A stretch of DNA of 64,000 nt from Octopus vulgaris (taxonomy: Eukaryota), in NCBI GenBank assembly GCA_951406725.2, contig OX597833.1:43958001-44022000 (forward strand), read 5' to 3'. Positions 1 to 63,649 of this stretch are shown one piece after another (within the stretch, counting starts at the first letter, position 1; every line of letters begins with the position of its first letter). The position numbers and the translations under genes are program-made. The notes beneath the pieces are model-generated. The model did no database searches. It had not been told where the DNA came from and was given only the letters and a program-made list of their open reading frames with translations.

Positions 1-63
1 ACATTGTCTTGCCCTTTTCAGCAGGTGGGTTAAGAACTTGCAGCTTGTTTATGTAAGATCTCG
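1..63 (-). CDS. Ig-array gene 1, Ig2 exon (5' part only; continues off the window)
   Basis: Acceptor ttctttcttttcag at 64-66, then (G)CG AGA TCT TAC ATA AAC AAG CTG CAA GTT CTT AAC CCA CCT GCT = ARSYINKLQVLNPPAEKGKTM. Homologous to the Ig2 exon starts of gene 2 (ARSHLDKLTVVNLP) and gene 3 (VRSYMKKLEFLNPPA). Phase matches the Ig1 donor at 2032-2033. Confidence 0.85.
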
Positions 64-375
64 CTGAAAAGAAAGAATCAAAATATGTAAAAGAATCGAT
101 ATATGTAAAGTTTAGAACAATGGACCACACAATAACAGACTACGAGGTTTCACTGAATAAGCTACAAGGTTCAGACTAAACAAAAATGTTTATCAGCGCT
201 CTAAATATTCTTAATGCCGAGCCTTGTGAACTCGTGTTTCGAAGTGTTCAACCGTCGAACTTTTTAGTGAAAGCAGTGCAAAGGCTATTCGGAGCCGAAT
301 CAATAGCAATAAATACACAACACATGAAGGACACATTCATACGCATGTATATTTACACACACACGTATGTACGTA

Positions 376-885
376 CGTAGTATGATCGATAAGTATCCGG
401 ACTGTTGCTAGAGTAACGAACTTAAAGTATGCAGAGTAAAGCTGCTTGACACAGATTGACCTTGAACTCTGCCGTGCATCTGCACTAAGTTTCAATGTTC
501 TAGCTCACTTCCGGTGTTTACATCAGTGCTTGGCAGTAACGTGTGTAGCGTGTGTTCGTCGTCTTGACAATGACAGAGACAGTTGAGCAGAGAATCTGCA
601 TCAAATTTTGCCAAGAGCTTGACGATACCTGCTCACAGGCCTACGCAAGTTTTCAAAATGTTTTCATCGCTCTCCACACAATCGTGGAGATCTTGTGCAA
701 CTGAAACCCGAGTGTCTTTTTGGTCAACTGAAAGCAGTTTTGGCGCAAACTTGGCAGACACATGTTTCATGCCCAAATCTTCAGTGATAATGGAATGAAC
801 CGAACCGTAACTAATCTGCACATACTCTGATAACTCATAGATGGTGATTCGACGATTTCCTCTCACAGCTGCATGCACAGTGGTG
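376..885. mobile_element. Degenerate, internally rearranged mariner (Tc1/mariner) transposon fragment
   Basis: Plus strand from ~571: MTETVEQRICIKFCQEL (mariner N-terminal HTH-like). Minus-strand ORF 633-878: RRITIYELSEYVQISYGSVHSIITEDLGMKHVSAKFAPKLL (second HTH plus WVPxxL-like linker). Confidence 0.75.
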
Positions 886-899
886 TACTAATGCCTGGA

Positions 900-1510
900 A
901 CTAGGTTTCTAATTACAGGTTTCTTATCATTCTCGGCCAATAGAGAGGTCTTCCCCTCTACAATGATGCTTTGGCCAGGAGCGGGTTTACTGAGAAGCTC
1001 ACGTATGTTGATGACCCCCAAACACTCTCAGTATTAGGAGAAGGAGAACTATATGGTATAATCCCCTTTCAACCTAGACGACTCCACCAACGTAGCTAGG
1101 GGCTTTCTGTCATTAATTAAAAAGTACTTCCCCAGAGGCCATAAGTATTACAAACTATTCAACCCCCATAATGTCATGGTGAGCTACTCTTACTTAGACA
1201 ACATCGCATCTAAAATCGCACGCATCAACAGACGTAAACATACACCCACACTACCCCAATCCCCAACCTGCAACTTCCGAAACACCACAATATACCCTCT
1301 AGAAGGCTCTTGTTTTTCAAGGGCCGTAGTATACAGAGCCACCCTTACACCATCCGATGGCATTACTATATGGGTATGACAGCTAATGATTTCAAAGGTA
1401 GATACTCCCAGCATATGCACTTGTTCAGATCCAGGGATAGAGAGAACTCTACTTACCTGTCTCGTTTTCTCTGGGGACTCCGTGATCTCCGAGATGAATA
1501 CCAACTACTA
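900..1510 (+). mobile_element. Penelope-like retroelement fragment (RT thumb to GIY-YIG endonuclease), frameshifted
   Basis: Translates as IWYNPPFN...FLSLIKKYFPRGHKYYKLFNPHNVMVSYSYLDNI, then CNFRN...PLEGSC...VVYRATL and, after a frameshift, YYMGMTANDFKGRYSQH. These are typical Penelope-like element motifs. Confidence 0.85.
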
Positions 1511-1534
1511 GCTCGGTCTCCGTGAAAATCTGTA

Positions 1535-2033: not shown

Positions 2034-2357
2034 CTTTTAAAGCTTTAACCTTTGAAGATTCGAGATTTGTTTTACATGAGTAATATGCCGCATCATCGCA
2101 AGTTGGATTAAATTTCCAGCAGGTAACCTCATCATTTTTAATATGATCTAGAGTACAGTCAAAACCCTTTCGCTTGATCACTGGCAGAAACTTCCTTTCC
2201 TCCTCGACATAATGAGTTTTGAAAACGATATAATTCAGATTTTGAACGAGAGCAAAGTAAAGAACATTTTTTAGATTATACCGACATGTTATAGTCATTC
2301 CAGTCGTGTATCCAAAATCAATAGTTTCAGAAGGTTTCGTATCTACAATCTCCATAG
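2034..2357 (-). CDS. Ig-array gene 1, Ig1 (V-like) exon, 324 nt, phase 1-1
   Basis: Acceptor tctttctctacag (2358-2360) and donor G|gtcagt (2033). Translation: (P)MEIVDTKPSETIDFGYTTGMTITCRY...KGFDCT...VTCWKFNPTCDDAAYYSCKTNLESSKVKALK, with B-strand Cys and a DxAxYxC F-strand motif. Two paralogous exons with identical splice signals occur in the window. Confidence 0.88.
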
Positions 2358-8472: not shown

Positions 8473-8705
8473 CACATGCATATATATGGGAATATGTATG
8501 TATGTATGTCGAAGAAAGAGAAAGAGCCGGTTTCTAACCTAGATCTAAGGCTCCTTCATTGGAATTTCAACATCGACAACAGGAAGTTTTTGTATGTATG
8601 TATCTATGTGTGAATGTGCATATGCAGATTTGTTTGTTTTGCTTTATGTATTATTCTAATGCATATAGTTGCATATCTAGACATGCTCATATGTATATAT
8701 ATATC

Positions 8706-8929
8706 TCTTTACTACCCACAAGGGGCCACAGAGAGGACAAACATGGGCAGACAAACGGATTAAGTCGATTATATCGACCCCAGTGCGTAACTGGTACTTA
8801 ATTTATCGACCCCGAAAGGATGAAAGGCAAAGTCGACCTCGGCGGAATTTGAACTCAGAACGTAGCGGCAGACGAAATACCGCTAAGCATTTCGTCCGGC
8901 GTGCTAACGTTTCTGCCAGCTCGCCGCCT
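8706..8929 (-). mobile_element. tRNA-derived SINE family A (MetaSINE-like domain)
   Basis: Minus strand: ggcggcgagctggcagaa head, B-box-like gagttcaaattcc, then gtcgactttgcctttcatcctttcggggtcgataaa. There are more than eight copies in the window. Confidence 0.88.
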
Positions 8930-9136
8930 TATATGTATATATATATATATATATGTATGCATATGTATATATATATGTATGTATGCATGCAAGCATGTAT
9001 GTGTGTGTATATGTGTGTGTATGTGCACGCGTGCGTACGTATAGTGCGTCTTGTGACGATCAAAGTGTGATATCTATGACAAGAAGGTTCAATGTTGTAA
9101 TTGAAGAAAATATTATTCCTCTTGATATTAACTTAC

Positions 9137-9185
9137 GGGTCGAAATGTGAGAAGCCATCATCAGTATCATCATAGCTAACAACAT
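9137..9185 (-). CDS. Ig-array gene 1, signal-peptide exon (coding part)
   Basis: ATG at 9185-9183 gives MLLAMMILMMASHIST plus 1 nt, then donor gtaagt (49 nt, phase 1). Joins the Ig1 exon at 2357 in frame. Paralogous exons at 23849 and 52517. Confidence 0.82.
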
Positions 9186-13253: not shown

Positions 13254-14224
13254 TGGTTGTGGAAATATTGAGACCACCCCTCAAGTGACTAAAAGGTGGT
13301 CTAACTCATTGATATAAAGCAAAGAACTCTGGGTGATTGACAGATTGGGTTGGTAAGCAGTGCATTGTGAGCCGTGGTTGAGAGCGTTGAATCTCGTGAA
13401 ACAGTAATAGTAGTGCGTCGTGTAAATAATTTATTTCTTCCCTGCTTCGTTATATATAATACAAAAATATAAGTGGCACGAGTTGTTCATAGCTTGCGTT
13501 ACACGTTTAAAAAAAATTTTTGATACGAAACCAAACGAAAAATTCGTTTAACATAGAGAACTTATTGGCCTCTGTTGTGAAGTTGCAATAGCAATAGCAA
13601 CAACAACAACAACTACAGCAGTAGCAACAGTTACAGCAGCAGCTGCAACTACAAGAGCAGTAACAGCACTTGAAGAAATCCGAAAATACTTCAAGATCGT
13701 ACTCGCCGGACAGCGAAGCAAATTCAATTGAAGAATTCAGCTATAATCCAGAAGAAGGGATTACCTTCTCTGCGTATTTTCGTAGATACGAAGAAATCTT
13801 CAAAACAGTTGGTGCGACGAGAAAAAAACTACTACTACTTTTAAGAAAGTTATCCCCCGCAGAACACGAAAAATATTGTAATTATATTCTGCCAAAAACT
13901 TCAGGTGATATTTGCTTCGACGACATAATTAATTCTTTATCAAAAATTTTCGGTGAAAATAGTTCCCTCTTCAATACTCGCAGGCAATGTTTAAATTTTG
14001 TAGAAAAAGATGAAGAATTCGCCGGAGTCCTTAATAGAGAGTGTGAGAAATTCAAATCGAATGAATTGACCCCGGACATGTTCAGAAGTTTAATTTTTAT
14101 TCAAGAGCTTACTGCAAGTAAAGATGCAAATATACGTTCCCGGATATTAACAAAATTAGAACAGGACCAAATATTAACTCTGCAGGCAGTAGCAGGAGAA
14201 TGTCAGAGGATTATAAGTCTGTGA
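13254..14224 (+). mobile_element. Gypsy/Ty3 LTR retrotransposon 5' remnant (LTR, PBS-like site, gag)
   Basis: PBS-like tggcacgag at ~13474. ORF 13670-14224 IEEFSYNPEEGITFSAYFRRYEEIF...LLLRKLSPAEHEKYCNYILPK is an invertebrate Gypsy gag-like sequence, with a homologue at 27345-27630. Confidence 0.8.
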
Positions 14225-15727: not shown

Positions 15728-16033
15728 TTGCTTAGTTGAAGAGTAATTTAGTTAGAGTTTGGCCATTCACAAAACATGTGATGTTTGTTACGCCAAAGTC
15801 CTCCTGTTTTACAGTGTATTTATAAATTGACGCTACTGGAGTTAAACACTCGTCACGAGATGGAACTTTAATGTTATCCTCATGTAAACTTGTATCATCA
15901 CGCGTTCTTTTAAACCATAGAAAGTCTTTAATGCCAAAAGGTGCTGGGACATATGCTAAACATCTGAAGATCGCTGTCTTGCCCACTACAATGGGTAGGT
16001 TAACAACTGTTAGTTTATCTAGGTGAGATCGCG
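15728..16033 (-). CDS. Ig-array gene 2, Ig2 exon (306 nt) with in-frame TAA at 15734-15732
   Basis: Acceptor ttttcttttcag and donor gtaagt at 15727. Translation: ARSHLDKLTVVNLPIVVGKTAIFRCLAYVPAPFGIKDFLWFK...DECLTPVASIYKYTVKQEDFGVTNITCFVNGQTLTKLLFN*. Same length (306 nt) as the gene 3 Ig2 exon. Confidence 0.82.
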
Positions 16034-17058: not shown

Positions 17059-17376
17059 CTTTTAAAATCTTAGTTTCTGAAGTTTGGGCATATGCTGTAA
17101 ATGAATAGCTTGCGGCATCCTTACATGTGGGGTTAAATTTCCAGCAGGTAGTCACACCTCTATAATCAGTGATTGTAGAACACTCGAAACCTCTACGCGC
17201 CTCTTTATAATATGAGCGTGCATCCCAATGATATCTATATGTGAAAACAATATCGTTGTTTTGCATGAGGTGAAAGTTAATAGGACCTAGCAGCTTAAAC
17301 TGGCATATTATAGTTATTCCAGCAGTGTTTCCAAATTCAATATAATGAGGAGGTGAGATGTCTAGAATTCTAATAT
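17059..17376 (-). CDS. Ig-array gene 2, Ig1 exon (318 nt, phase 1-1); F-strand Cys replaced by Phe
   Basis: Acceptor tttttttactacatag and donor G|gtcagt. Translation: (Y)IRILDISPPHYIEFGNTAGITIICQFKLLGPINFHLMQNN...RGFECST...TTCWKFNPTCKDAASYSFTAYAQTSETKILK. Confidence 0.85.
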
Positions 17377-17454: not shown

Positions 17455-18090
17455 GAAAGAAGAAGAAGAAGAAGAAGAAAGAGGAGGAGGAGAAGAAGAA
17501 GAAGAAGAAGGAGAAGAAGAAGAAGGAAGTGGAGAAGAAAAAGAATGAAGAAGGAAGAGGAGGAGAAGAAGAATGAAGAAGAAGAAGAAGAAAGAGGAGG
17601 AGAAGAAGAAAGAGGAGGAGAAAAAGAAGAAGAAGTAGAAGAAGAAAGAGGAAGAGAAGAAGAAGAATGAAGAAGAATGAAGAAGAAGAAGTAGAAGAAT
17701 GAAGAAGAAGAAGAAGAAGAAGAAAGAGGAGGAGAAGAAGAAGAAAGAGGAGGAGAAAAAGAAGAAGTAGAAGAAGAAAGAGGAGGAGAAGAAGAAGAAT
17801 GAAGAAGAATGAAGAAGAAGAAGAAGAAGAAGAAGAAGAAGAAAGAGGAGGAGAAAAAGAAGAAGTAGAAGAAGAAAGAGGAGAAGAAGAAGAATGAAGA
17901 AGAATGAAGAAGAAGAAGTAGAAGAATGAAGAAGAAGAAGAAGAAGAAGAAGAAGAAGAAAGAGGAGGAGAAGAAGAAGAAGAAGAAGAGAAGAGGAGGA
18001 GGAGGAGAAGAAGAAGAAGAGAAAGAATAAGAAGAGAAAGAAGAAGAAGAAGAAGAAGAGGAGGAGAAGAAGAAGAAGAAGAAGAGGAGG
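17455..18090. repeat. Expanded (GAA/GGA)n tract next to the gene 2 Ig1 acceptor
   Basis: Direct reading; about 630 bp with higher-order repeat units. Confidence 0.95.
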
Positions 18091-23848: not shown

Positions 23849-23897
23849 AGGCCATAGTGTAGGAAGCCATCATCACTATCATCATAGCTAGCAACAT
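23849..23897 (-). CDS. Ig-array gene 2, signal-peptide exon (coding part)
   Basis: MLLAMMIVMMASYTMA plus 1 nt, donor gtaagt, 49 nt. In frame with the Ig1 exon at 17376. Confidence 0.8.
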
Positions 23898-25081: not shown

Positions 25082-25125
<44 letters not shown>

Positions 25126-25342
25126 CTTTACTAGGGCTAAACACAGAGGGGACAAACAAGGACAGACAAACGGATTAAGTCGATTACATCGATCCCAGTG
25201 CGTAACTGGTACTTAATTTATCGACCCCGAAAGGATGAAAGGCAAAGTCGACCTCGGCGGAATTTGAACACAGAACGTAGCGGCAGGCGAAATACGGCTA
25301 CGCATTTCGCCCGGCGTGCTAACGGTTCTGCCAGCTCGCCGC

Positions 25343-25402
<60 letters not shown>

Positions 25403-25785: not shown

Positions 25786-25972
25786 TTTATCTAAATGATT
25801 TTTCAATATGGCCCTGAGTGGAGAGGCTACCTTAAGTTCCTGTTGTGGTCGCAATGGTACACCCCATCCCACGGGACAAGTAATATGAATCGGCCACTAT
25901 AAAGTGAGACGACGTCAACCAATGCACAGAGTCTTTTGTCCGTCGTTGTACAAGTTCTCGGTCGTAGGTAAG

Positions 25973-32060: not shown

Positions 32061-34102
32061 AAGAATGAGAGCAGAAATAGGTGTGCAGCTGTAGAGGAGA
32101 TATATGGCTTTCCAGCCAGAGGCAAGAAGAAAGGAAAGAGAGAGAGAGAGAGAGAGTAGGAAACAGCAAAAGGGCAAGAGATAGCGAGAAAGAGAGAGGA
32201 AGTAGGAAACAGCAAAAGTGCAAGAGAGAGAGAGAGAGAGAGAAAGAGAGCAGGAGAGAGATGGTGAAGTACCAGTGTATATTTATCCGTAATTCTAAAG
32301 TTGCCAATTTTATTGCATTATTCTACTCATAACTGGCATTACTATTAGCATTACAAGTATGTTCACTATTTTTACTACTATCTTTATGATATTAATTTCA
32401 TTATTATAATTACTAGAACTAATATTATTGCTGCTCCTACCATCATTAATACGGTAAATGCTGATGCGGAGAGTTGGCACAATCGTTACAACAACGGAAC
32501 AAATGTTTATCGACATTTCTTGTCTTTTACCTTCTGAGTTCAAATATCATCGAGCTCGAATTTGTCTTTCACCATTTTGGGATCAATAAAATAATAACCA
32601 ATTTAGAACTGGCTTAGATAGAATCGACTATCCCCTTCCACAATATTTGGCCTTGAAACCATTGTAGAAAGGACTATTACTGTAATTATTAACATTATTA
32701 CTATTACCACTACTGAGTCGAACGTCGGATATATCTTGAGTAGTTGTGTTGGTGTCACATATGAAATACTTTCCATTCTCTCGCACATTATCTACCAATA
32801 CATCGACTCCTGGTCTATGTGCAGCATGTAGAGTCATTTACATTGCAATTATAAATATTAGAAAAGACCTGTTGAGTAAGATTTTATTATTCTATTGGAG
32901 GTATATTTTATAATAGGGTAGTTGCGTAAGACACATTAACGATATGTCTATTAAAATGTTTTATGATATCTAATAGATTTACTGAAGAGTTTATCTAATG
33001 CAGCGAAGAAAGCGGAAGCAATCAGAGGGAATACATCAAGGTTAAATACTGGATATATCATTTTTTTTCTTACGTAATCCTTTACCGATTTTACTATTCT
33101 TGTTTTCCCTACTGTGTGCAGTGTTTTGCTTATACTTTACACCACTACCTAATGTTTTCATACAGCTGCTAGTTGTAGTTCCGTTACTTAAGTATTTTCG
33201 CTCCTTATCATTTCTTAACATCCCTCAATTTCCATCATTCCCCTCTCTTGCTATTAATTATAGTCAAGGTAGCGCGTTCGAATAGTTAGGTTCTCATAGT
33301 AGGGCACATGTCCTATATATACATACGTGTTTCACCAATCATGCTTATTGTTAATTATATCCTCATTTATTCCGTCTCCAGACCTACACCTTTGTCTACC
33401 AATTGTAGTATTCAAGTGTTCCTGCAAGAACTGATTCACTACTTTGAATATAACTAATTTTTCTACATATCTCATTGGATCCCATTGGGATTGTTCGACC
33501 AAAATTTTCAAAAACTTTACACATTTTCCTATACCATCTTAGTTCCGCTACACTATACCTGTCAACGTAAAACAATGTCATTTCTCTTTATACTTCTCCT
33601 AACCTAGGGAAAATAGTTACTAGTTGCAAAACGATAGAGATTGTGTACTTATATACGAAAAATTGTTTTATTATATCTTTCTAGATTCATGTGTATCAGA
33701 GCATATGTATCCATATACACACAAACACACATTAAGATATGTTTTCATTATCAGAAATCAACAAGCACTAACTGCAGAAGGCACACAATATATAGTATGG
33801 AGTCAAATATTTATTTCCGGGGAAAATGTGAGTTAATTTTCGCTTGGAAGTTTCGAAATAACCTGTAAAAAAGAAAGCATTGCCAATTTAGAAAGAAACT
33901 ATACGTGTATGTAAGTATGTATGAATGTATGTATGTATGTATGTATGTATGTATGCACGTATGTATGTATGTATGTATGTATGTATGTATGTATGTATGT
34001 ATGTATGTATGTATGTATGAATGTATGTATGTATGTATGTATGTATGTATGTATGTATGTATGCATGCACGATGAGTTTTGAATAAAACCAATGCAGTAA
34101 GC

Positions 34103-34480: not shown

Positions 34481-34513
34481 TAATCGTAAACTTAATAATA
34501 TTATATAGAAGAA

Positions 34514-34745: not shown

Positions 34746-34840
34746 TATTATATAGAAGAATAACAAAATCAAAGGAACGAAAATGAAAAATACAATACTA
34801 ACCACTTTTTGATTCTGCTGGGGCTTGTTTTCCGAAATCC

Positions 34841-34920
34841 TTAATGAAAATGGCCAATAACAAGCAGTGTTGCTGCAAATTTCAAAATCTTAGTAATAAT
34901 ATTTGCATCAGATAATTTAT
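34841..34920 (-). CDS. Ig-array gene 3, last coding exon: short hydrophobic C-terminus (GPI-signal-like)
   Basis: Acceptor tttttttctttctattacag; phase-1 reading (D)KLSDANIITKILKFAATLLVIGHFH*. A donor-like gttagt lies 38 nt after the stop (34802) and an acceptor-like tttcttttttacag at ~33863, suggesting a 3'UTR intron. Confidence 0.65.
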
Positions 34921-36313: not shown

Positions 36314-36346
36314 CTGCATTGTCTCTGATTGCTTGCTGCTCAGTAC
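36314..36346 (-). CDS. Ig-array gene 3, 33-nt linker micro-exon
   Basis: atttttatttgaag|GTACTGAGCAGCAAGCAATCAGAGACAATGCAG|gtatct = (G)TEQQAIRDNA, phase 1-1. The paralogue at 63617-63649 has a canonical tttctag acceptor. Confidence 0.6.
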
Positions 36347-36680: not shown

Positions 36681-36720
<40 letters not shown>

Positions 36721-37859: not shown

Positions 37860-38340
37860 AATCCGCTTCCACTTTACTATGTTGAAAATTTGATTGAAAT
37901 CGGGCCATTATTACATCATCTATCGTTATCGTTTCTGGCATTTTCTCAATAGTTTTCTTTGGCGCTTGAATGACCGTGTTTAAGGTTTGGCCTTCGCAAT
38001 GCCTACTTTCCGTCGTTGTGGCCTGGAGAACCGCTATCTCTTTCTCTTTTCCATGTAGGACTGGGGCTGCTATCCAGATCACGTCAACTTCTGGTGGGAT
38101 TCCCTCTACGCTAACTTTTAAAGCACGCCTTCTATGGTACATATATATAATAGTATCACTTCATCACTCTTTATAATGGTTGCCGCGTTCTCCTTTGTCT
38201 TTTCTGCCTCTTTAAATATCACCTCTACATTTCCATACTTGCGCCCGGTAAGATACCTTATCTCTTGTCAGATTGGCCTTAGTGCCTTCTCTATTCTGTA
38301 AGTAGTCATTATGTCTATCTTCCCAGCAGCTACTGAATGC
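37860..38340 (-). mobile_element. LINE ORF1-like remnant (Tx1/L1 type)
   Basis: RRRALKVSVEGIPPEVDVIWIAAPVL resembles the RRM-like region of Tx1-type ORF1 proteins. Degenerate. Confidence 0.4.
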
Positions 38341-39814: not shown

Positions 39815-41700
39815 ATGAGTTTCCTGGTCCATTTCTACCAGTCCAAAGCTTTTGACAAGGTTGAACATCGGTATCCGGTGCTGGTCCTCTGCTTTCGGGG
39901 TCGGCCTCGTCTTTAGAGGGTGGATCATTGCTTTATACAGTAACATTGACTCGATAGTTCGGGCGAACGGGTTCTTCTTGAAGCCTATCAACATCAAGCA
40001 CTCTGTTCATCAATGGTGTCCTCTCTCCCCACTTCTGTATGTATTGGCTCTAGAGTTCTTGCTGCGGAAGTTGGAGAGATTAAAGTGCATCCCACGAGAT
40101 CTAGGTTGCAGTGGGAAGGTTTCGGCGTATGCGAATGACATCACCATCATAGTGTCCGAAATGGTACACCTACAGAGGGCAGGCAACGCCATTAAAGGCT
40201 ATGAGGCAGGAGCAAAAGTTAACTGGAATAAGTCAGTCGGCTTGCAACTCGGCACCTGGCAAGGCAAGACGATACCTCCCAACAACATCGTAGGGCGTTG
40301 GACGGAGGGGCTGGTTAAAATGTTAGGGGTTTAGTTTGGCCAGATCTCCAGATAATGAATTGGAGCGAGGTGACGAGCAGGGTGATCCAGCTAACTCAGA
40401 CCTGGTCTCAGTGGCGGCTCTCCCTGAAAGGAAGGGCAGAGGTCGCAGTTGTGTTTATCGGTTCCGTGATTAACTACCGCCTAACCGTCGTGCCTTGCCC
40501 CCGTTCGTGGCTGATCAATTTAGAGGGGCTGCTCTTCCGTTATTTTGTGGAGTAGAAGTCCTCTTGTAAAGCGCTCTGTCTGCTGCCAGTACCCGCTAAA
40601 TGGTGGGCAAGGGATGTCTTGGCTGTTGATGCGCAGACGTGCGCTGATGCTGAGGTATCTGTGTCTCTACCTGGATAGTGAACAGGTGTTGTCTCCGTTC
40701 GGTCGGTCGTTATATCCTAAGCTTACTAGTTTGGGTGAACTAGGACCTTGGGTCAAGTGTAGACGAAAGTTGAGTGCTTGGCAAGCGAAGTGTTGTGAGG
40801 CACTCAAGCTTCTCTGTCAACGCCAGCGGTGGGGAGGGGGTTCCACCTCGTATTTTTATAGAGGGTTAGTTGAGGTCCACTGTGACGACGATGTGGGGGA
40901 AGACTCTAGGCTTCGATGATGGTCAACTAGCCTGTCTGTTCCGAAGGACATTTGGGCCAGGACCCTTGGATAACTTCCAAAGATTCCCCGCCTGGCAGTG
41001 TTACTGAGGAGCCTTACCAATTCGCGATAAACTCGCAAAGCATGGTGCACCTTGCGCACCCGCGCGCCCAAGATGCGAGCAGGACAGGGAAACTGTTCTG
41101 CACGCGATTGTACAATGACCCAAAATTTCCGAAATGTGGGTTTACCTTGAACACACGCTGACGCGGCTGGGAAGAGTACAACTGTCTTTCGAGTCGATTG
41201 TATAGATTGTTCCTGCCTCCTCTTTTAACAAAGAAGGCATGGCTCGTTTTCTCATTGTGGTCGCTATACCGAAAGAAGTAGTATGGAAGACCCACGTGAA
41301 AAGAATCGTGAGAGGCATTTTCATCTCCAGCCTTGGACTGGTTAATTTCCTCATCTACCATCTTAAGAGAAAAATTAGGGTGGAGATAAAATGCCTGTCA
41401 CCTGATTTATACGGAAAACGATGGAAGGCTGTAGCGAGTTTGTTGAGAATGAAGAATCCGCATAGTATATCCATAAGATTATACAAAAAGGTTACAATGG
41501 TTGCATGGGTTTGCGGGGTCGAAGCGAAACCCGTCCCCCATTTCATTGTATGGTTATTGTTTGGTATCATCCTATTTATATAAATTCTTAACGTAAATTT
41601 TTAACTATTCATCTATTCTAAAATCATTCGTTTTATCCACTCCTCCCTCATTTGTATCGTCCCCTCTATGTTTGGCCCCTGTGGGCAATAAAGAAATAGT
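39815..41700 (+). mobile_element. Tx1/L1-clade LINE, 5'-truncated, degenerate RT to 3' end
   Basis: QSKAFDKVEHR, SVHQWCPLSPLLYVLALE, SAYANDITI, GAKVNWNKS, WSQWRLSLKGRA, and a C-terminal CPRCEQDRETVLH zinc-knuckle-like segment. Many stops and frameshifts. Confidence 0.85.
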
Positions 41701-42508
41701 CGTTCTTGTTCTTTGAGTTGCTGTTGGTGACTGCAGGGGAATGGTGGGACAGCGTAGGGCAGGGTGGGAGTAGGGTAGAAATTCACATTTTCGCCTTGAT
41801 TTCTTCTTTTCCCTCTCTTCCGTTTCTTTGGTGCCGTATTCCATCCATGTTTCTCCTCTGCCACCTGATTATCTTCCTCCTTCTTCGGTTCCTTTTTGCT
41901 CACATATGACATCGCAAGCGGTGGAGGTGCGCTTTCTTTCGTTGGTTCCTTTGCGGCAGGTGGAGTGTATCCTGTTTTATGTGCCTTTTTGGCCGCATTT
42001 AAAGCAACAGTGAGTCATACCACTTTGCCACGTGAAACGGGGTGCACCATTTCTCTACTACTGTGTGTATAGTGTGCGCGTGTGTGTATGCATGTGTGTG
42101 TGCGTGTGCGTGCGTCCCTGCGTGGGTACGTGTGTACGTGCGTTCGTGCATGTGTATGTACGTATTTATAAAGAGAAAGTTCGCTTTTCCGTGCTGTACG
42201 GACCTTTTCACTACAATTTCCGCCATAAGGAGGACTTTATGCAAACCATGTCATATAGAGTGCATTTAAAGGATGCAGCTTCTTATATCAACTTAATGTC
42301 TCTAGAATCTTAAAAAAGAAAATATATAAATTTGGTTAATCGTAATGATATACCTGTCAAGGATAAATATAATTGTCAATATAACCGTGAGTGGATGTAC
42401 AAATTTACTGAAAGGTGTAATTTAACCAGAAATATTGTTTCATGAGACGTTAATGTACAAGAATATATAAAGGCGTTAAGGAAGATAACACAAAGAAAAT
42501 TTGTTTAC

Positions 42509-42814
42509 CTGTTTTGCTGGTGAGCTGTAGAGTGCGTGATTCACTGTATACAGAACATGAGACGCTTGAGTTACCAATATCCCCCTCTCTTATAACGAAT
42601 TTCTTAAGTGACGCTGCTGGAGATAAACACATTCCATGAGGTCGAACATCCACTTCCTTCACATTTATCCATTTGTGGTGTTTTGTCTCATGACTCCATA
42701 AAAAGTCAGTAGCGCCAAAAGGTGCACCGATGTATGCTGAACATCTGAAGATCGCTAACATGTTTACTTTAGCGGGCGGGTTAAGAAATTCAAGTTTCTT
42801 CATGTAAGATCTCA
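42509..42814 (-). CDS. Ig-array gene 3, Ig2 exon (306 nt, phase 1-1)
   Basis: Acceptor ttttcttttcag and donor G|gtaaac. Translation: VRSYMKKLEFLNPPAKVNMLAIFRCSAYIGAPFGATDFLWSHE...GMCLSPAASLKKFVIREGDIGNSSVSCSVYSESRTLQLTSKT (C..W..C Ig pattern). Confidence 0.88.
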
Positions 42815-42849
42815 CTGAAAAGAAAATAAAAGAAAAAAACGAAAAGGCG

Positions 42850-43018
42850 AAGTAGTGGCTGTGTAGTAAGTAACTTGCTAACCAACCACATGGTTCGGGG
42901 TTCAGTCCCACTGCGTGGCATCTTGGGCAAGTGTCTTCTGCTCTAGCCCCGGGCCGACCAATGCCTTGTGAGTGGATTTGGTAGACGGAAACTGAAAGAT
43001 GCCTGTCTTATATATGGA

Positions 43019-43102
<84 letters not shown>

Positions 43103-43300
43103 TCCCCCTAGCACTGCTTGACAACCAATGCTGTTGTGTTTACGTCCCCGTCACTTAGCGGTTCGGCAAAAGAGACCGATAGAATAAGTACTGGGCTTAC
43201 AAAGAATAAGTCCCGGGGTCCATTAGCTCGACTAAAGGCGGTGCTCCAGCATGGCCGCAGTCAAATGACTGAAACAAGTAAAAGAGTAAAAAGAGTAAAG
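42850..43300 (+). mobile_element. SINE family B inserted just upstream of the gene 3 Ig2 acceptor
   Basis: Consensus match to 19079-19460. A further 3' fragment lies at 43715-43850. Confidence 0.88.
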
Positions 43301-43874
43301 AGAATCGAAATATGCTTATCTTCGAACAAAGGGCCTCACAATAAAAGAATAGTTTCTCTAATGTAAACTACAATCTTCATACAAAACTAAAACATTTGAC
43401 AACACTCCAATTATTGTTAATCCTGGACTTTGGGAACTGTTGCTTGGAAGTGGTTAACTGTTTAAGCAGTGCTAAGGCTGTGTGGGGCCAAGTCACTAGC
43501 AGTAACTCCACAACAAATGAATGACACATTCATACACGTGTATATTTACTTACACATAAGCATGTATTTGTGTGCAATTATATATATTTTCATGTGTGCG
43601 TGTATGTATGTGTGTGTGTGCGCATGTATGAATATGTGGACACATATATAGATACATATATATACACATACGCAAACATATTTACATACATTCATGCATG
43701 CATATACAGACATGCACTTAGCGGTTCGGCAAAAGAGACCCATAGAATAAGTACTGGGCTTACAAAAAATAAGTTCCGGGGTCGATTTGCTCGACTAAAG
43801 GCGGTGCTCCAGCATGGCCGCTGTCAAATGACTGAAATAAGTAAAAGAGAGAAAAGAAAGAGAGGGATTTAAGG

Positions 43875-44225
43875 ACATGCTGGACGGTACCTACACCAGA
43901 ATGTTACGTGCAGTGCCCTACATTTAATGGAGGGAGCACCCAACTAAACAAAGGTTATATGGGAATGTATTAACTTTCTCATCAATCATCTAAGAGCGGA
44001 CATTGGGTTTTGCTGACCATTGCTGGAGAAGTAAAGAAGAACTTGTGAGTAACGAGTTGTTGTGGGCACCAAATCACGGTACCACAGCGACTGGACGACC
44101 ACGGAAGACATATATACAACAGCTTGCAGAAGATGTTGCATGCCAAGTTGAAGGCCTAAAAACACTAATGGAAGATCGGGAGTGATGGAGAGAGGTAGTC
44201 AGGCTGGCCTGGGCAATTGACCTGA
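43875..44225 (+). mobile_element. RTE-like LINE 3' fragment
   Basis: LDGTYTRMLRAV...GFADHCWRSKEELVSNELLWAPNHG..GRPRKTYIQQL...MEDRE.W. Confidence 0.7.
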
Positions 44226-44346
44226 CTGGATGAAACTTGTGTTCGATAGTGCAATAGAAACACGCAATAGAAATAAAAATAAAGACAATGGAGTTGAATA
44301 CGTGCAAAACAAGAAACGGAAGTAAAAATAGAACGAGTAAACTGAC

Positions 44347-44679
44347 CTCTTACAACTCTAGGTTTTGAAGATCCTTCATTTGTTGAACATTTGTAGTATG
44401 TCGCATCCTCACAAGAGGGATAACGTTTCGTGCAGGTAATCACACCTTTCTTATCTGCAGGGAATGTAGGTACAGTACAGTCAAAACCCTTTTTCTTGGT
44501 TACTACCTCAAAAATTGCTTTCTTACATTGAAAATCGATTTGAACAATAACTTCACTGTGATTTCGCACGAGAAAAAACTGAATAAGATTTTTTATAGCA
44601 TACCGACATTTTATAGTTAAGAATGTTCTGTTTGCAAAATCAATATTGCTTGAAGGTAACACATCTGCAATCTCAATAA
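44347..44679 (-). CDS. Ig-array gene 3, Ig1 exon (333 nt, phase 1-1)
   Basis: Acceptor ttcttctatacag and donor G|gtcagt. Translation: (F)IEIADVLPSSNIDFANRTFLTIKCRYAIKNL...KGFDCTV...ITCTKRYPSCEDATYYKCSTNEGSSKPRVVR. Confidence 0.88.
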
Positions 44680-45175
44680 CTGTATAGAAGAAAAAAAAAC
44701 ATAAATCAGAGATAGATGTTATAAAAAATATATAAATGTAACTATAGAAGAAGAAGAAGAAGAAGAAGAAGAAGAAGAAGAAGAAGAAGAAGAAGAAGAA
44801 GAAGAAGAAGAAGAAGAATGACTGAAGTAGGAAAAGGAGAACCAATTAAAGTAACGGTTGTTGTGAATACGGATTACATCTATCCACAAATAAAACTTTG
44901 CAGATAGTTTTTGATATTTATTATTATACTGACATACCTGTGTCGCCAAAATGCCGACAGTTTAATTAATCATAGAAAATAGTTCATCAACACAATGGGA
45001 AAAACCTGTGATAGATGTCATCAATGTGGTAAATATATGCACATGCACTCAAGTTAGGCTCTTTAAGTATTAATTACGGTTCTAACGTCTCAGTTGAAAA
45101 TATCTTGATACATATGTATTTACGGACGGACACACGGAGTTACACATACACACACACACACACACACATATATAC

Positions 45176-52516: not shown

Positions 52517-52562
52517 AAGCCGAGATGTAAGAAGACATCAGTAACATCATAACTAACAACAT
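52517..52562 (-). CDS. Ig-array gene 3, signal-peptide exon (coding part)
   Basis: MLLVMMLLMSSYISA plus 1 nt, donor gtaagt, 46 nt. Full CDS is 46+333+306+33+80 = 798 nt = 265 aa plus stop. Confidence 0.82.
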
Positions 52563-55980: not shown

Positions 55981-56575
55981 TACGTGTATAGACGTGTGCG
56001 GGTATGTGCGCATATAGGCGTGTATGCGCGCTTGCATAAGTGTATGTGCGTATATTGACGCGTAATTTGATTCCATTGGGATTTATTGACCCAAATTTTC
56101 AAAAACTTTACACATTTTCCAATACCATTTTAGTTCCGCTACACTATACCTGTCAACGTAAAACAATGTCATTTCTCTTTATACTTCTCCTAACCTAGGG
56201 AAAATAGTTACTAGTTGCAAAACGATAGAGATTGTGTACTTATATACGAAAAATTGTTTTATTATATCTTTCTAGATTCATGTGTATCAGAGCATATGTA
56301 TCCATATACACACAAACACACATTAAGATATGTTTTCAATATCAGAAATCAATGAGCACTAACTACAGAAAGCACACAATATATAGTATGGAGTCAAATA
56401 TTTATTTCCGGAGAAAATGTGAGTTAATTTTCGCTTGGAAGTTTCGAAATAACCTGTAAAAAAGAAAGCATTGCCAATTTAGAAAGAAACTATACGTGTA
56501 TGTATGTATGTATGCATGCAATGCTCGTATATATGTACCTATGTATGTATGTATGTATGTATGTATGTATGTATG

Positions 56576-59500
56576 TCGCAGGTCACTTTCGAGTGCTACT
56601 GGTAACATGTAACCCAGTACAACCTGTTGCATGGTCGGGTCCTCGGCGACTAAACCGGCAAACCCACAAGTGAGGAGGGTGTTTATTGGACACTTTGCGG
56701 GATGAAAAACAAAACCTGTCAAAGGGCGGAGGACCTCTTGAGAGTCAACGGCCATCCAATAAATGTTAGCACGGGTACGTAAAAATTCGGGGTGGTGTCC
56801 GGTGTGCTGGAAGACCACTGGGAGTGAGGCGCCCCTCAGCTTTTGTTAAAGCACGTCTCTAGGAGAAGGTCACTCTGATATAAAAACCAGATATGCAGGG
56901 AATGGCATTGAACATTTTGGGGATCTTTGGTTTGTGCTAGAGATCACGGCGCTCTCACATCCCTGTGCTTGCGACTCATATTGGCACCAGACATCTTGCT
57001 CCGGCTTGTCTCTGGATAATGTCAATAGAGTTGAGAGGGTCTATGAGGTGTTGTGAAAGCCTTATTGGACCTAAAACTCTGCACAGGCATTGCCAAATTT
57101 TTTTATATATATCTTATTTTTAGTATATATTTTCTTCATTTTTAGTAATTTTTTTTCAGAAGTCCTGCGGCGATGGGAAGGTGGTGAAGCATGCAGACCT
57201 GACGGGTTGGAAGCATGTAGTCAGCGACCTGCACGTAGGTGGCCCATGCTAGATATAAAGTCGTCTCCTTGTCGCCCAAGACAGCGGTAAGATTCGGTTG
57301 CTGCATGGGTGTCTGAGCAGCTCCATTTGGAGAGGGCACTGCTCACCTGGAGACCGGGGAGGTTCTAGAAAAGGTGAACCAAAAATTGCCTGTCTTTCCA
57401 TATCTGGTCAGTTTAGCGTGACTGATGGATGCCCACTCTGCGCTCGAAAAACAAGGAGTCTTTTATCTATAAAATCTGGACGGAACTTAAACATTTCATG
57501 TTGGAATGTGCGTACTCTGTTGGACAACAAGAGTGATTGCAGGCCTGAAAGACGCACTGCACTTGTTGCTCGTGAGCTGAACCGTTATAAAATTGATATA
57601 GCTGCACTCTCAGAGACTCGTATAGAAGGTGATGGTCAGCTTGAGGAAGTAGGAGGCGGATACACCTTTTTTTTGGAAAGGAAGGCAGAAGGAGAAGTGC
57701 AGAGAGGCTGGTGTTGGATTTACAGTCCGATCTGATATCCTGAAGAAGTTGGAAGAGCTCCCTGTCCCTATAGATGAACGTATAATGACCCTACGGTTGC
57801 ACTTGAAAGGTAAGCGGTTTGCTACTCTAATAAATGCCTATGCACCTACTTTGACTAGCTGTGATGAAGATAAAATAATCTTTTATACCCAGCTGAGAGC
57901 CATACTTAGAAAAATCCCCAATTCTGATAAAGTCATTCTACTGGGGGATTTTAATGCCAGAGTAGGAACATACTGGAAAACATGGAACTCTCTAGGACGT
58001 TTTGGAGTAGGGAAAATGAATAGCAATGGTCTCATGCTACTGGAGCTTTGCGAAGAACATGGCCTTTACATTGCAAGTACTCATTTTGTGCACAAAGGTG
58101 ATCACACAACAACATGGATGCTTCCAAGGTCCAAAGTTTGGCATTTGCTGTATTACGTCATCATCCGCAAGCGCGATATTTATGACATTTGTAATGTCAA
58201 GTCATTGCATGGATCAGAATGCTGGACAGACCACAGTCTGTTGCGAGCAAAGTTCCGAATGGTGATTAGGGCGAAAGAGAGAAGAGGACCAGTCAGCATT
58301 CCTCGCCGTCTAAATGTCCAAAAGGTATATGACGTTGTGGTTAGGAAAGAGCTTCAGACTCGCTTGTCCAGCATTGAAACTGCTGCAGCATGGGAAGAGT
58401 TTCGAGACCAAGTTGTTCAATGTGCAGCCGAGACACTAGGGTATGTTACTGCCAGACACAGACTGGTTTGATGAGAATGATGCTGAAATTCAACGACTAT
58501 TAGTGGTGAAGCACCATGCCCACAGTGTGTTGCTGCACAGAGAACTGTCTACTGTGCAGCGAAGTCTAGCACTTGCCCACTATAACAGTGTAAAATCACT
58601 ACTGCAGCGATCTCTCAGGAAGATCCAGAACACTTGGTGGGAGGATCTTGCTCGTGATGTTCAGGCTGGTGCTGATGCAAATGACAGCAAAAAGCTTTAC
58701 CATCTTATGAAGCGAGCTTATGGACCTAAGATCTCCTCATCAGCTCCTTTTCTTTCCAAGGAGTCTTCCACTCTGTTTAATAAATCAATAGAAATCACAG
58801 GTCGCTGGATCGAACACTTCTCTGAACTCCTAATTCATGAGTCAGTTGTGGATGAAACAGTGATTGATACTATGAAACAAAGACCTATCATTGACTCCTT
58901 AGACTCCTCGCCATCAATACATGAAATAATGACATCAATAAGTAAATTAAATCTTGGTAGGGCACCTGGAAAGGATGGAATTTGTGCTGAGGTCTTGCGA
59001 TTTGGTGGTAATTGCATCACACAGTCCCTTCATGAACTTATTAGTGCAGTCTGGAGGGATGGTGCAATCCCTAAGGACTGGAAGGATGCAATTATTCTTC
59101 CTCTATATAAAGGAAAGGAGCCAGAACAATGTGTGGTAACTACAAAGGTATTGCTCTACTATCAGCTGCTGGCAAGGTTCTAGCAAATATTCTTCTTACC
59201 CGTCTGAATGGGTTTCTCGTAAATGATGTCCTATCTGAATCTCAATGTGGCTTCCGATCTGGTAGAGGGACAATGGATATGATTTTCACAGCAAGACAGA
59301 TGCAGGAGAAGTGCTATGAGCAGAATATGGATCTTGTCCAGGTATTCATTGATTTGACAAAGGCCTTTGATACTGTAAATAGGGCCTTTCTATGGAAAAT
59401 ACTTGGATGTCCGGATCACTTTGTATCTATAATTAAAGCATTTCATGGTGGGATGGAGGCTTGGGTCAATGTTGGTGGTGCCATGGCGGGACCCATTCCT

Positions 59501-60722
59501 GTAGAGAATGGTGTCAAGCAGGGTGACATCCTTGCCCCAACTCTCTTTTCTTTGTACTTTGCTGCTGTTTTTACTCATGCTTTTGCTAAGGTTAACTCTC
59601 TGGGAATATATGTCAGATATCGATCTTCTGGCCGCCTCTTTAATCTTCGCCGATTTGCTGCCAATTCAAAGGTGTCCCAGTCTATTATTCGTGACCTCCT
59701 TTATGCAGATGACTGTGACTTAGTCACTCATACAGTGGATGACATGCAAATACTCATGAATTGCATTTCTGCTTCTTGCAGGGCATTTGGACTCAGCATT
59801 AGCCTGGACAAGACTGTTGTAATGTTCCAGCCTGCACCAGGAAATCCATATATAGAACCAGCTATCTTGGTTGAAGGAACAATTCTGAAGGTAGTAGACA
59901 AGTTTGTCTACCTGGGCAGCACACTCAGCCGTTCTTGCTCCCTGGATGAGGAAATATCTTTCAGGTTGCAGAGAGCAACTAATTCCTTCCGGTCTCTTCA
60001 GTCTCGTATCTGGTCGCAACATGGCATCGCAAGGAGAACAAAAGTTGCTGTGTACCGTGCTTGTGTACTGACATCGCTTCTCTACTCATGTGAGACATGG
60101 ACTCTGTACAAACGTCAGTTAAGGGTTCTTGAACGTTTTCATCAGAGATGTCTCAGACACATTCTCAATGTTGGCTGGACCTAAAAAATTCCGGACACAC
60201 AGATCTTGAGGACAGCTGATATCTTGAGTATTGAGGCGATGGTACACAAGCACCGGTTTGGGTTGGACTGGATACCTTATTAGAATGGAGGATAGAAGGA
60301 TTCCTAAGCAGATGCTCTATGGAGAACTTGTGAATGGAAGGAGACTCCGGCAGAAACCAAGGCTGCGATTGAAGGACTGTGTCAAGTACTCGTTAAAGGC
60401 CTTTGATATGCAGGACACTGACAGGGAGAACAATGCCTGTCATCGCCACAGATGGAGGAAACAGGTTAAGGAGGGGATCGACACTTTCGAGAAAGCACGT
60501 ATCCAGCATGAAGAACTTAAGCGAGCTGCGCGAGAGCGCACGGCTCGTATAATGAATGGGGAAAGCTTGGTCTGCAATGTTTGCAGTCGTGTATGCTTGT
60601 CAAGAGCAGGGCTCATTAGCCACCAACGGAGCCGCAAATGCAAAATATAAGTTAGTCCTAGAGCGCACAATGTTCCTGAAGGTCAGCAATGGTCTTCCTC
60701 GGTCACAAGTGGACGGCTATCA
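56576..60722 (+). mobile_element. Near-full-length RTE-clade LINE (APE + RT + C-terminal C2H2-like), inactivated by frameshifts and stops
   Basis: APE: SCWNVRTLLD, IDIAALSETR, NAYAPT, LLGDFNARVG, WTDHSL. RT: ESQCGFR, FIDLTKAFDTV, GVKQGDILAPTLF, LLYADDC, FVYLGS. C-terminus CNVCSRVCLSRAGLISHQR and an (ATGT)n tail. Split over ORFs 57298, 57749, 58443, 59129 and 60231. Confidence 0.95.
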
Positions 60723-61973
60723 TGTATGTATGTATGTATGTATGTATGTATGTATGTATGTATGTATGTATGTATGTATGTATGTATGTGTGCATGCACG
60801 TATGTATGTACCTATGTATGTATGTACGTATGTATGTATGTATGTATGTATGTATGTATGTATGTATGTATGTATGTATGTATGTATGTATGTATGTATG
60901 TATTATGTACGTATGTGTGTATTTAACTTCAGCCAGAGCTTCACAACTGGTGTTTCTTGAATACGGCTCTATAATTTAGAGGTTTGGTAAAAGTGATGAT
61001 CGAATAAGTATCAAACTTAAAAATAGGTAGTGAGGCCTCTTTGTTCGACAGTTTAAGCTGGTAGCCAAGCGTGGTCGCAGTCCTATGACTGAAACAAGTA
61101 AACAAGATTATCTACGCTCGTGAAAAGATGGGATGTTCAGTAATCGAATGCTTTTGCTCGATGAATGTTTATATAAATATTAAAGAAGAATGACCATAAC
61201 GATGAGTTTAGAATAAAACCAATGCAGTAAGCTGTTATGATGTGGTGTTTTCCATATCTATAATGTGTGGTCCCTGTCTTGACTGTAGCTGTTGTATCTA
61301 CTATAGTGGACATTTGTCTGGTATCGGATACAGTTTATCTCTTCTATACCGGAGTAGTAATACATCGCTTCGTCTATCGTGCTATTGCTGATAGCTCTGC
61401 AAAACAGCGACTTTGAACACCCTACCATCACTGTTGACTCGAACTCGACTATAACCCTTAACTGACACTTAACTCCAACAGAGAACTCGTGCAATTATTC
61501 TACAACGACTGATAGACTACTACCCGTACTGGTTGACGTCGTCGCACTTTATAGTGGCTGAGTCATACCATTTGTCCCTTGGGAGGGGTATACCATTTCC
61601 ACTACGACATAATCGCAAACTTAATCAATAATATTATATAGAAGAACGGCGGCGAGCTGGCAGAACCGTCCGCACGCCGGGCGAAATGCGTAGCCGCATT
61701 TCGTCTGCCGTTACGTTCTGAGTTCAAATTCCGCCGAGGTCGACTTTGCCTTTCATCCTTTCGAGGTCGATAAATTAAGTACCAGTTACGCACTGGGGTC
61801 GATGTAATCGACTTAATCCCTTTGTCTGTCCTTGTTTGTTTCCTCTGTGTTTAGCCCCTTGTGGGCAGTAAAGAAATATATTATATAGAAGAACAACAAA
61901 ATCAAAGGAACGAAAATGAAAAATACAATACTAACCACTTTTTGATTCTGCTGGGGCTTGTTTTCCGAAATCC

Positions 61974-62053
61974 TTAATGAAAATGGCCAATAACAAGCAG
62001 TGTTGCTGCAAATTTCAAAATCTTAGTAATAATATTTGCATCATATAATTTAT
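61974..62053 (-). CDS. Ig-array gene 4, last coding exon (hydrophobic tail)
   Basis: (D)KLYDANIITKILKFAATLLVIGHFH*, one substitution (S>Y) relative to gene 3, with the same splice signals. Confidence 0.6.
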
Positions 62054-63616
62054 CTGTAATAGAAAGAAAAAAAAAGCACATTTCATTTTAATTTTGGTAC
62101 AAGACCAAAAACTTTGTTGAAGGTGGACATCGATTACATCAACTCCAGTATTCAATTGGTGCCTAATTCATTGACTCTGAAAGAATGAAAAGTAAAGTCA
62201 ACTTCGGTGGCATTTTAACCCAGAAAGCCGGACAAAATGCCACCAAGCATTTTTTACGGCGTGCTCATGAATCTACCAGCTTGCAGCCTCAGAAACAGTA
62301 ATCAGGGATATTGGAGATTTACATAAACACACGTAAACAATAAATAATGGGAAGAAAATCAAAACAACAAAATTCCCAATTAAAATGGAAACGTTACCCA
62401 AAGGTAACCAAGTAACCTCACAGTAAACAAGTAATCCTTAGTCACCCTGTTACCAGGAATACTGTTGTGTTTCTCTCTCCTCCATGCTTCTGTAACTACA
62501 TGGGCACGCTTAGGTTACGACAATTCACTCGAGATATTCTTGTTATATTCATCCACAGTGTAACAGTTTTACTGGGAGAAAGGACCTTGCTCTCCACGCT
62601 CACTTTCCTTTTAAACATGAAAAGTCAATGAAGGTTTGGTCTCTTTCTCATTAATCGCATCATCTTTCACCATAAGCATCTAACAGAGGAAATCTGCCTA
62701 CCCTTCAAAATCAAAGGAAAGCAAGGAAGCAATCTTCACTTTGGAGTCGACCTATAACCAGATCCTTCCGAGAAGTGATTGCAGATGGTAGACGTAACTC
62801 CAGAAATCAACGAGGCTCAAGCACTATACTAATACGTGTAGAAAATCTTCATCATGCAATGTGCATCAAGTGCAAGAGCAGCTGAGGGGAATATCATGCC
62901 GGTACATTTTTTTCCGCCGAGGTCGGCTTTGCCTTTCATCCTTTCGGAGGTCGATTAAATAAGTACCAGTTACGCACTGGGGTCAGTATAATCGACTTAA
63001 TCCGTTTGTCTGTCCTTGTTTGTCCTCTCTGTGTTTAGCCCCTTGTGGGCAGTAACGAAATGGGTACATTTTATTACGAATCGGCAATGTTATTCTGTAG
63101 CACTGCCAGGCAAGGGATTTTTGTAAATTATCAATGGAACCCGGCTTAAAACTTCTTCGAAAACGACTAGGCAGTTGGCATTCATTGACACTCAGAGATT
63201 CCTAGAGGATGTTATCACTTTTACTCACCACCAATTGTGAGTAGATGATCTCGGTGCAACGTCCACTAAGACCAATACCCTGCTGACAGAGGTGTGAGCG
63301 CCTGATGTCACACTAGGTGTCAGGTACCCTGCATAGGTCTATGCTTGACCCAAGAATGTCGAGTATATATTTGTGTGTGCGTGGTATCTGTGTGTATGTA
63401 TGTGTGTGTGAGTGTGTGTAGCGTGTGCATGTATGTATGTATAGACGTGTATATTAGTGTTTGTTCCCCACCATCACTGGAAAACCAGTGTTGGTTTGTT
63501 TACGTGCCCACAACGTATCAGTTCGGGAATAAGTACGACAAAGGCTATTAGAAAATAGCCAAGCATGGCCACCATCCAGTAACTGAAAGAAGCAAAAGTT
63601 AGAAGATAAAAGATAC

Positions 63617-63649
63617 CTGCATTGTCTCTGATTGCTTTCTGCTCAGTAC
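63617..63649 (-). CDS. Ig-array gene 4, 33-nt linker micro-exon (upstream exons lie beyond the window)
   Basis: tttttatttctag|GTACTGAGCAGAAAGCAATCAGAGACAATGCAG|gtatct = (G)TEQKAIRDNA. Confidence 0.62.

Follow-up and report, generated by a model that had tools for sequence, protein, structure and literature searches.

Organization of the Ig-domain gene array

The window analysed here, a 64,000-nucleotide stretch of Octopus vulgaris contig OX597833.1 whose features are described over positions 1–63,649, contains parts of four paralogous genes that lie in tandem on the minus strand and are numbered 1 to 4 from left to right. The four are members of an Octopus tandem family with a predicted signal peptide followed by two immunoglobulin (Ig) domains, a V-set domain 1 (D1) and a C-type domain 2 (D2). 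Only genes 2 and 3 are complete within the window, and the 5′ exons of gene 4 lie beyond its right end. The exons, including those of the 3′ untranslated region (3′UTR), are as follows, with GPI standing for glycosylphosphatidylinositol.

63617..63649, minus strand: gene 4 linker exon; 33 nt, phase 1-1, 32 of 33 nt the same as in the gene 3 linker
61936..62053, minus strand: gene 4 tail exon; hydrophobic C-terminus, stop ending at 61974, then the 5′ part of the 3′UTR
56065..56453, minus strand: gene 4 3′UTR exon; low end approximate, AATAAA at 56406, 56263 and 56087
52517..52562, minus strand: gene 3 leader exon, coding part; predicted signal peptide
44347..44679, minus strand: gene 3 domain 1 exon; predicted V-set Ig
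42509..42814, minus strand: gene 3 domain 2 exon; predicted C-type Ig
36314..36346, minus strand: gene 3 linker exon; 33 nt
34803..34920, minus strand: gene 3 tail exon; GPI-signal-like hydrophobic end, stop ending at 34841, donor after 34803
33474..33862, minus strand: gene 3 3′UTR exon; low end approximate, AATAAA at 33815, 33672 and 33371
23849..23897, minus strand: gene 2 leader exon, coding part
17059..17376, minus strand: gene 2 domain 1 exon
15728..16033, minus strand: gene 2 domain 2 exon; in-frame TAA at 15734-15732
9137..9185, minus strand: gene 1 leader exon, coding part
2034..2357, minus strand: gene 1 domain 1 exon; present also in public model CAI9737731.1
1..63, minus strand: gene 1 domain 2 exon, start only; cut by the window edge

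All 13 exon ends proposed in the initial annotation of this DNA were located on the minus strand, and its GT-AG, phase-1 boundaries hold for the junctions inside the window (AG/GT flanks). The internal exons are 333, 324, 318, 306, 306, 33 and 33 nt long, each divisible by three, and joining the exons of gene 3 reproduces the open frame of 265 amino acids that had been claimed for it. The tail exons of genes 3 and 4 are about 99% identical, and upstream of the gene 3 leader homologous 5′UTR/promoter DNA continues. Family profiles, built with gene 3 and its close orthologues included, were scanned against the window in six frames and recovered three D1 exons and no others (E 1e-37 to 9e-30), two complete D2 exons (E 3e-34 and 6e-33) and the cut D2 of gene 1 (E 0.12), with a weak stray match near 30.7 kb (E 0.29); no further Ig exon was found in the window by these profiles. 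Linker and tail DNA occur only twice each, and the window has no Rfam match. The layout of the array is not due to chance.

Splicing and a fifth, non-coding exon

Four coded sequencing runs, none on record as RNA and with tissue not given, were aligned to positions 34100–44740, a stretch that ends short of the leader–D1 junction of gene 3. Contig 3 of run X1 joins D2, linker and tail, matching 42506–42685 with one mismatch and 34799–34920 with none, with 30 letters between the two. Run X17, which carries a different species label, has joints at 42814/44347 (21 letters on the short side) and at 36343/42506, both CT..AC on the plus strand, together with a loose end at 36314 that corresponds to the start of the tail exon and another at 34799 that corresponds to sequence of the 3′UTR exon. 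Three of the four coding junctions of gene 3, and its UTR junction, are bridged by public contigs. The initially modelled junctions 44347>42814, 42509>36346 and 36314>34920 are therefore seen in X1 or X17 contigs, and the leader–D1 junction lies outside the coverage; among the joints listed for X2 and X3 none falls at a modelled junction. Because the contig joins fall at GT-AG introns, we infer that they derive from spliced transcripts.

Genes 3 and 4 also have a fifth, non-coding exon that was absent from the initial annotation, the 3′UTR exon starting at 33862 in gene 3 and 56453 in gene 4. Its donor lies 38 nt past the stop codon, so that the tail exon extends to 34803 in gene 3 and to 61936 in gene 4. 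The tail–3′UTR splice is seen for sequence of the gene 3/4 type, linker and tail reads not being assignable between the two genes.

Predicted fold and conserved cysteines

AlphaFold2 modelling of gene 3 D1 and D2 from a 29-row alignment gave a nearly all-strand structure (pLDDT 94.0, pTM 0.83). The top rows listed by Foldseek are all Ig-domain entries, and VIA returned Z scores of 10.5–11.8, at 4–17% identity, to antibody and T-cell receptor V domains, CEACAM1/7, B7-H6, butyrophilin, nectin-3 and Rst. Several of these matches cover model residues 1–212, and no specific solved relative stands out among them. The two Ig folds that had been proposed are in this way upheld as predicted, not solved, structures: from strand count and structural matches D1 is predicted to be V-set and D2 C-type, and by its predicted fold and cysteine pattern the family belongs to the Ig superfamily (IgSF). 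The two domains have no sequence similarity to each other, and prediction of a homodimer of the gene 3 ectodomain scored 0.05.

There are several conserved features. First, D1 has C24 in 26 of 27 aligned rows and C97 in 28 of 29, with D91 and Y95 invariant (the D-x-x-x-Y-x-C motif), and D2 has C135 in 20 of 21 and C197 in 20 of 20. Second, the C-strand Trp is present in D2 (W150 in 20 of 21) and absent from D1, which has Leu, Phe or Ile at positions 34 and 36; on its sequence D1 is atypical for a V domain, a trait found in other invertebrate families too. Third, five cysteines are conserved in D1 (24, 67, 82, 89 and 97) and three in D2 (135, 173 and 197). C89 and C173 align with two cysteines of the light chains at the head of the PDB profile search (best E 0.0014), and since these sites match the V–C bridge Cys80–Cys171 of rabbit kappa chains (PMC10038998), a C89–C173 interdomain disulfide is predicted. 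Gene 3 D1 also has an extra Cys at residue 51, within the hypervariable hairpin, in one of 29 aligned rows.

None of the five window exons scores above the gathering threshold of a Pfam Ig family. The best V-set score has E 0.042 (P0006) and the best ig score E 4.8e-5 (2 of 29 rows). Missing the Pfam threshold in this way reflects divergence, not another fold.

The family in Octopus and its public annotation

Part of O. vulgaris CAI9737731.1 (P0001) matches gene 3 D1 at 100% identity. This public model is a 726-aa chimera in which an upstream gene is fused to gene 4, gene 3 and gene 1; it omits gene 2 and translates the tail exon of gene 4 in another frame. The O. vulgaris reference mis-annotates the family, and Pfam thresholds do not reveal it. 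A profile made from the three D1 domains, searched against 1.84 billion proteins, gave 37 matches, of which 36 are family members (E <= 3.6e-7) and one is an unrelated repeat protein. Names were retrieved for 26 of the 36, all from O. vulgaris, O. sinensis or O. bimaculoides and labelled 'uncharacterized', 'hypothetical' or 'Ig-like'; one has no name and nine were not looked up. No squid, cuttlefish or other mollusc is among the 26 named matches, and because the D1 profile is narrow, restriction to Octopus is only moderately supported. Two word-based searches with broad alignments, by an insensitive method, likewise found Octopus members only (7 of 1549 and 6 of 3657 candidates).

A 73.6-Mb contig carries eight O. 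vulgaris records with numbers in the range CAI9737727-38, and these contain 18 D1 domains, or 19 once gene 2 is added. Counted from public protein models, V domains of the family number at least 19 in the O. vulgaris records. One record has five near-identical repeats, which may be collapsed or may be a real array. A second group lies elsewhere on the same contig (CAI9737148), and one transmembrane member is on another (CAI9716300).

In a V-domain tree of 47 rows gene 1 pairs with O. bimaculoides LOC106880714 (support 100/97) and gene 2 with LOC106880713 X2 (100/98), and six gene 3-like O. vulgaris copies (100/99) stand beside the single O. bimaculoides LOC106880713 X1 (91/98, unstarred). The six copies against one suggest birth-and-death evolution. 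The expansion had been proposed to be a lineage-specific one of cephalopods; it is tandem and lineage-restricted, with Octopus, and not cephalopods in general, as the range that is shown. No named family had been recognised initially, and we likewise found neither a name nor a paper for it. As to membership of an already described conserved family with one-to-one orthologues, O. bimaculoides orthologues exist for gene 1, gene 2 and the gene 3 clade, and these are uncharacterised.

The public models have further peculiarities. NCBI lists distinct paralogues as isoforms, LOC106880713 X1 being gene 3-like and X2 gene 2-like, which hints at read-through or shared exons, the 3′ exons in particular. 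LOC106880715 has two V-C cassettes under one O. bimaculoides locus. Models P0004, P0014, P0038 and P0002 have the V exon joined straight to linker or tail, skipping D2, an arrangement that would leave C89 without its partner. P0010, P0032 and P0035 have Thr/Pro/Lys-rich, mucin-like stalks after D2.

Literature searches by identifier and topic returned no description of the family, though unseen supplements and subscription papers may list the genes; a single identifier match proved to be a Ca-ATPase. There is no mention of the family in the accessible portions of PMC9068888, PMC10370119, PMC4199593, PMC11431876 and PMC11999971, and no match to it in three supplements of PMC9712504. The genes are already public as uncharacterised proteins, and the family is undescribed in the searchable literature.

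Evolutionary rate and turnover

Pairwise codon models of the five full window exons gave ratios of nonsynonymous to synonymous change (omega) of 0.91–1.63 in ten fits, and an omega of 0.3 was rejected in all ten (p <= 3e-4); Nei-Gojobori dN/dS values are 1.0–1.6. Also in line with rapid evolution, the DNA of the Ig exons (64–73% identity) has diverged more than that of homologous non-coding blocks (76–85%). Orthologues in O. vulgaris and O. bimaculoides are 53–69% identical in D1. Within O. vulgaris, when five recent gene 3-like V domains are compared, variation is highest in windows of 16 residues that start at 42–48 (permutation P=0.006; five of the six gene 3-like copies, the partial P0008 being left out, and four of them from unverified public models), and the changes cluster at residues about 42–63, on strands assigned as C′ and C′′. 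Between genes 3 and 4 the 3′ blocks, introns included, share 96–99% identity, whereas the V domains are 85% identical in protein, which fits a recent duplication or conversion together with faster change in V.

C-terminal types and the tail-less gene 2

Three C-terminal patterns can be told apart by sequence: transmembrane, a hydrophobic end with no cytoplasmic tail, and tail-less (P0005/gene 2). Tails of the gene 3/4 type have candidate omega triplets 22–29 residues from the end and a best 12-mer Kyte-Doolittle (KD) value of 2.2, and members of the second group have stronger GPI-like ends (KD 3.0–3.4). Genes 3 and 4 are likely GPI-anchored on this pattern; for gene 3 taken singly, anchoring seems somewhat more probable than its absence.

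P0048, P0049 and P0031 are type I transmembrane relatives (21-residue KD 3.5–3.6). In P0048, which is O. sinensis LOC115221679 X2, the tail measures 192 aa and carries ten cytoplasmic Tyr residues, a poly-Pro run, an S-x-V end and one motif, LHYAEL, of the ITIM (immunoreceptor tyrosine-based inhibitory motif) consensus.

The D2 exon of gene 2 has an in-frame TAA two codons ahead of its donor, giving a 222-aa product, and neither family profiles nor DNA comparison found a linker or tail exon for it in the window. Because the O. bimaculoides orthologue XP_014786274.1 terminates at the same codon, at the end of D2, the tail-less form is conserved and the gene 2 product is likely secreted. Gene 2 as a pseudogene was considered and rejected, the orthologue ending at the identical codon. 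A consensus donor is retained just past the stop, and no homologous UTR exon was found downstream of gene 2 in the window.

The ectodomain of LOC115221679 is represented in O. vulgaris ink by two peptides and four peptide-spectrum matches in two of three samples (supplement of PMC10142993). Signal peptides and N-glycosylation sites occur in some members and Thr-rich stalks in P0010, P0032 and P0035, and with the ink detection these would suit bulk glycoproteins, structural or secretory, that occur in mucus, ink or saliva and have no specific recognition role. The focusing of variation on the V hairpin and the tyrosine-motif tail fit binding or signalling better, and we regard bulk glycoproteins as quite improbable. 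Much the same standing, if marginally higher, is given to reproductive recognition or seminal or oviducal proteins that change rapidly because of sexual selection. Rapid evolution and duplication particular to one species, both typical of reproductive proteins, would fit, and there is a weak Izumo-Ig match in one distant member (E 0.002, 1 of 29 rows); a family member is nonetheless found in ink, and nothing in the analysis points to gonad. Secreted CEACAMs of the PSG type are themselves reproductive (PMC2832619).

A possible receptor-and-decoy role

The explanation that we favour is that the fast-changing V-domain hairpin would bind microbial or parasite ligands at exposed epithelial or secretory surfaces, that the transmembrane member would pass on an inhibitory signal through its ITIM-type tail, as in CEACAM, and that the likely GPI-anchored products of genes 3 and 4 and the likely secreted product of gene 2 would serve as surface traps or decoys. 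Ligand class, inhibitory signalling, decoy role and epithelial or secretory site are all proposed by analogy only. In favour of the explanation count the predicted V-C fold, the splicing, the three C-terminal patterns within one family, the ITIM-consensus motif of P0048, the rapid evolution with its variation focused on one hairpin, the copy turnover and the detection of LOC115221679 in ink. That the family works like mammalian CEACAM/PSG, with an inhibitory receptor and both anchored and secreted decoys, is put forward tentatively, at somewhat less than an even chance. The more specific proposition of an independently evolved CEACAM/Siglec-style system, in which an ITIM-bearing, disulfide-locked V-C receptor and some twenty or more positively selected GPI-anchored or secreted relatives are engaged in an arms race with microbes or parasites, seems rather doubtful; if true, no diversified family of Ig recognition proteins would have been described in a cephalopod before it.

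Several observations count against a receptor-and-decoy role. First, an omega of 1 was rejected in none of the ten fits (p 0.08–0.97), and relaxed selection is possible for that reason; moreover, the non-coding blocks with which the Ig exons were compared had been chosen by similarity, which favours the contrast in DNA identity. The family could then consist of redundant duplicates drifting under relaxed selection, diverse and with no special function, in keeping also with several public family models being partial or single-domain. We hold this, too, to be quite improbable: the open frames, near-invariant cysteines, splicing and gene 2 stop kept in two species indicate constraint on the scaffold. 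Second, the gene 3-type tail is only moderately hydrophobic (KD 2.2); it is also amphipathic (moment 0.9), and the second group has the stronger tails. Third, an ITIM of the LHYAEL type is not rare (shuffle P=0.11) and occurs in one O. sinensis isoform group only; P0049 and P0031, the O. vulgaris models, lack it, and the three transmembrane proteins scanned have no activating counterpart (ITAM). Fourth, the transmembrane members fall in a separate branch of the V-domain tree from the window genes, P0031 being about 28% identical to gene 3, whereas CEACAM decoys stay near their receptor. Finally, motifs of the window genes were not found among the rows listed in the accessible ink (PMC10142993) and 2023 skin-mucus supplements.

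Repeats and mobile elements in the window

An element of the long interspersed nuclear element (LINE) type at 57259–60650 on the plus strand has fragmented endonuclease and RVT_1 (E 5e-26) frames, is flanked by (TATG)n and lies antisense within the last intron of gene 4. Since this intron is about 5.5 kb in gene 4 and 0.94 kb in gene 3, the LINE likely inserted after the gene 3/4 duplication. A degenerate reverse transcriptase fragment is present in the D2–linker intron of gene 3 (39819–40334, plus strand), a Tc5 transposase DNA-binding fragment at 29399–29800 (minus strand), and DUF7083 fragments at 13664–14224 and 27254–27667 (both plus strand). Multi-copy short interspersed repeats are dense, e.g. 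at 1532–1884, 8689–8988, 25108–25790, 34498–34754 and 42845–43300; they attract most of the aligned contigs. Microsatellites are long, e.g. (AAG)207 at 17457–18085.

Comparison with known Ig families

No diversified Ig-type recognition family in cephalopods was found in the literature searched, unlike the FREPs of snails, the VCBPs of amphioxus and Alr of Hydractinia, and the family is a candidate for octopus recognition of microbes, parasites or self. With snail FREPs and amphioxus VCBPs it shares the use of germline-diversified Ig domains, which in those systems serve invertebrate immunity (PMC13428168). Unlike them it shows neither a fibrinogen nor a chitin-binding domain when 6 and 29 octopus proteins are scanned with Pfam, and gene 3 ends in a short hydrophobic tail in place of the FREP/VCBP C-terminal domain. 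The V+C tandem fold resembles the ectodomains of B7, butyrophilin and nectin and the rabbit kappa-1 light chain, the latter also in the extra Cys pair at the sites of its Cys80–Cys171 bridge (PMC10038998). Identity to these proteins is however 10–16%, with no outstanding match, no B30.2 domain and no sign of orthology.

Like Dpr/DIP (Wirin) and Beat proteins, the octopus proteins are two-Ig surface proteins, possibly GPI-anchored and expanded by duplication (PMC10084454). Such an architecture would suit a cell-identity or adhesion code, in which paralogues bind one another or partner Ig proteins and so sort neurons or epithelia, in the manner of Dpr/DIP, Beat/Side or nectins, or tell self from non-self tissue, as Hydractinia Alr does. 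The tied structural matches include nectin-3 and Rst, and language-model neighbours, as a lead only, include unnamed arthropod Ig-like clusters of similar length. Hydractinia Alr is a further parallel, being an invertebrate, clustered and highly divergent V-set IgSF family whose V domains are atypical, whose tails carry ITIM/ITAM motifs and which may have splice forms that are secreted (bioRxiv 2022.03.04.482883). Nevertheless, Alr V domains have no core cysteines and are accompanied by I-set and Fn3-like domains (bioRxiv 2022.03.04.482883), whereas the octopus family keeps C24/C97, has one C-type domain and includes many members with no transmembrane helix. Wiring codes tend to be conserved, and an omega about or above 1 with fast copy turnover between two Octopus species is unusual for them and unlike Dpr/DIP/Beat. 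Sequence-profile, PDB-profile and Pfam searches connected the family to none of Dpr, DIP, Beat and Alr, though its profiles were not compared directly with those of Dpr, DIP and Beat. An adhesion code is on balance unlikely; in neurons or skin it would join protocadherins and chemotactile receptors as another clustered expansion.

The receptor-and-decoy reading has its closest model in the CEA family (CEACAM1, CEACAM5-8 and PSG). CEACAM N domains are not known to have the B-F disulfide, whereas in the octopus V domain both B-F cysteines are retained, along with three further conserved ones. There is no sequence homology beyond the Ig fold; no CEACAM is among the 37 D1-profile matches, and a weak CEA match (E 0.098) stands among many Ig chains. 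The octopus anchored copies are not near the ITIM receptor in the tree, and no ITAM member is among those scanned. We infer that the two families are of independent origin. There are nonetheless three likenesses. First, both consist of clustered V-set and C-type genes with V-domain diversification and birth and death; in CEACAM1 conservation is lowest on the CFG face (PMC2832619). Second, CEACAM1/7 are among the tied fold matches. Third, transmembrane-ITIM, GPI-type and secreted forms occur in one family, in the octopus as judged from sequence patterns; CEACAMs have these three modes, and the GPI-anchored members have been proposed to trap and shed pathogens (PMC2832619). If CEACAM-like logic holds, octopus and mammal would have converged on a receptor-plus-decoy architecture.

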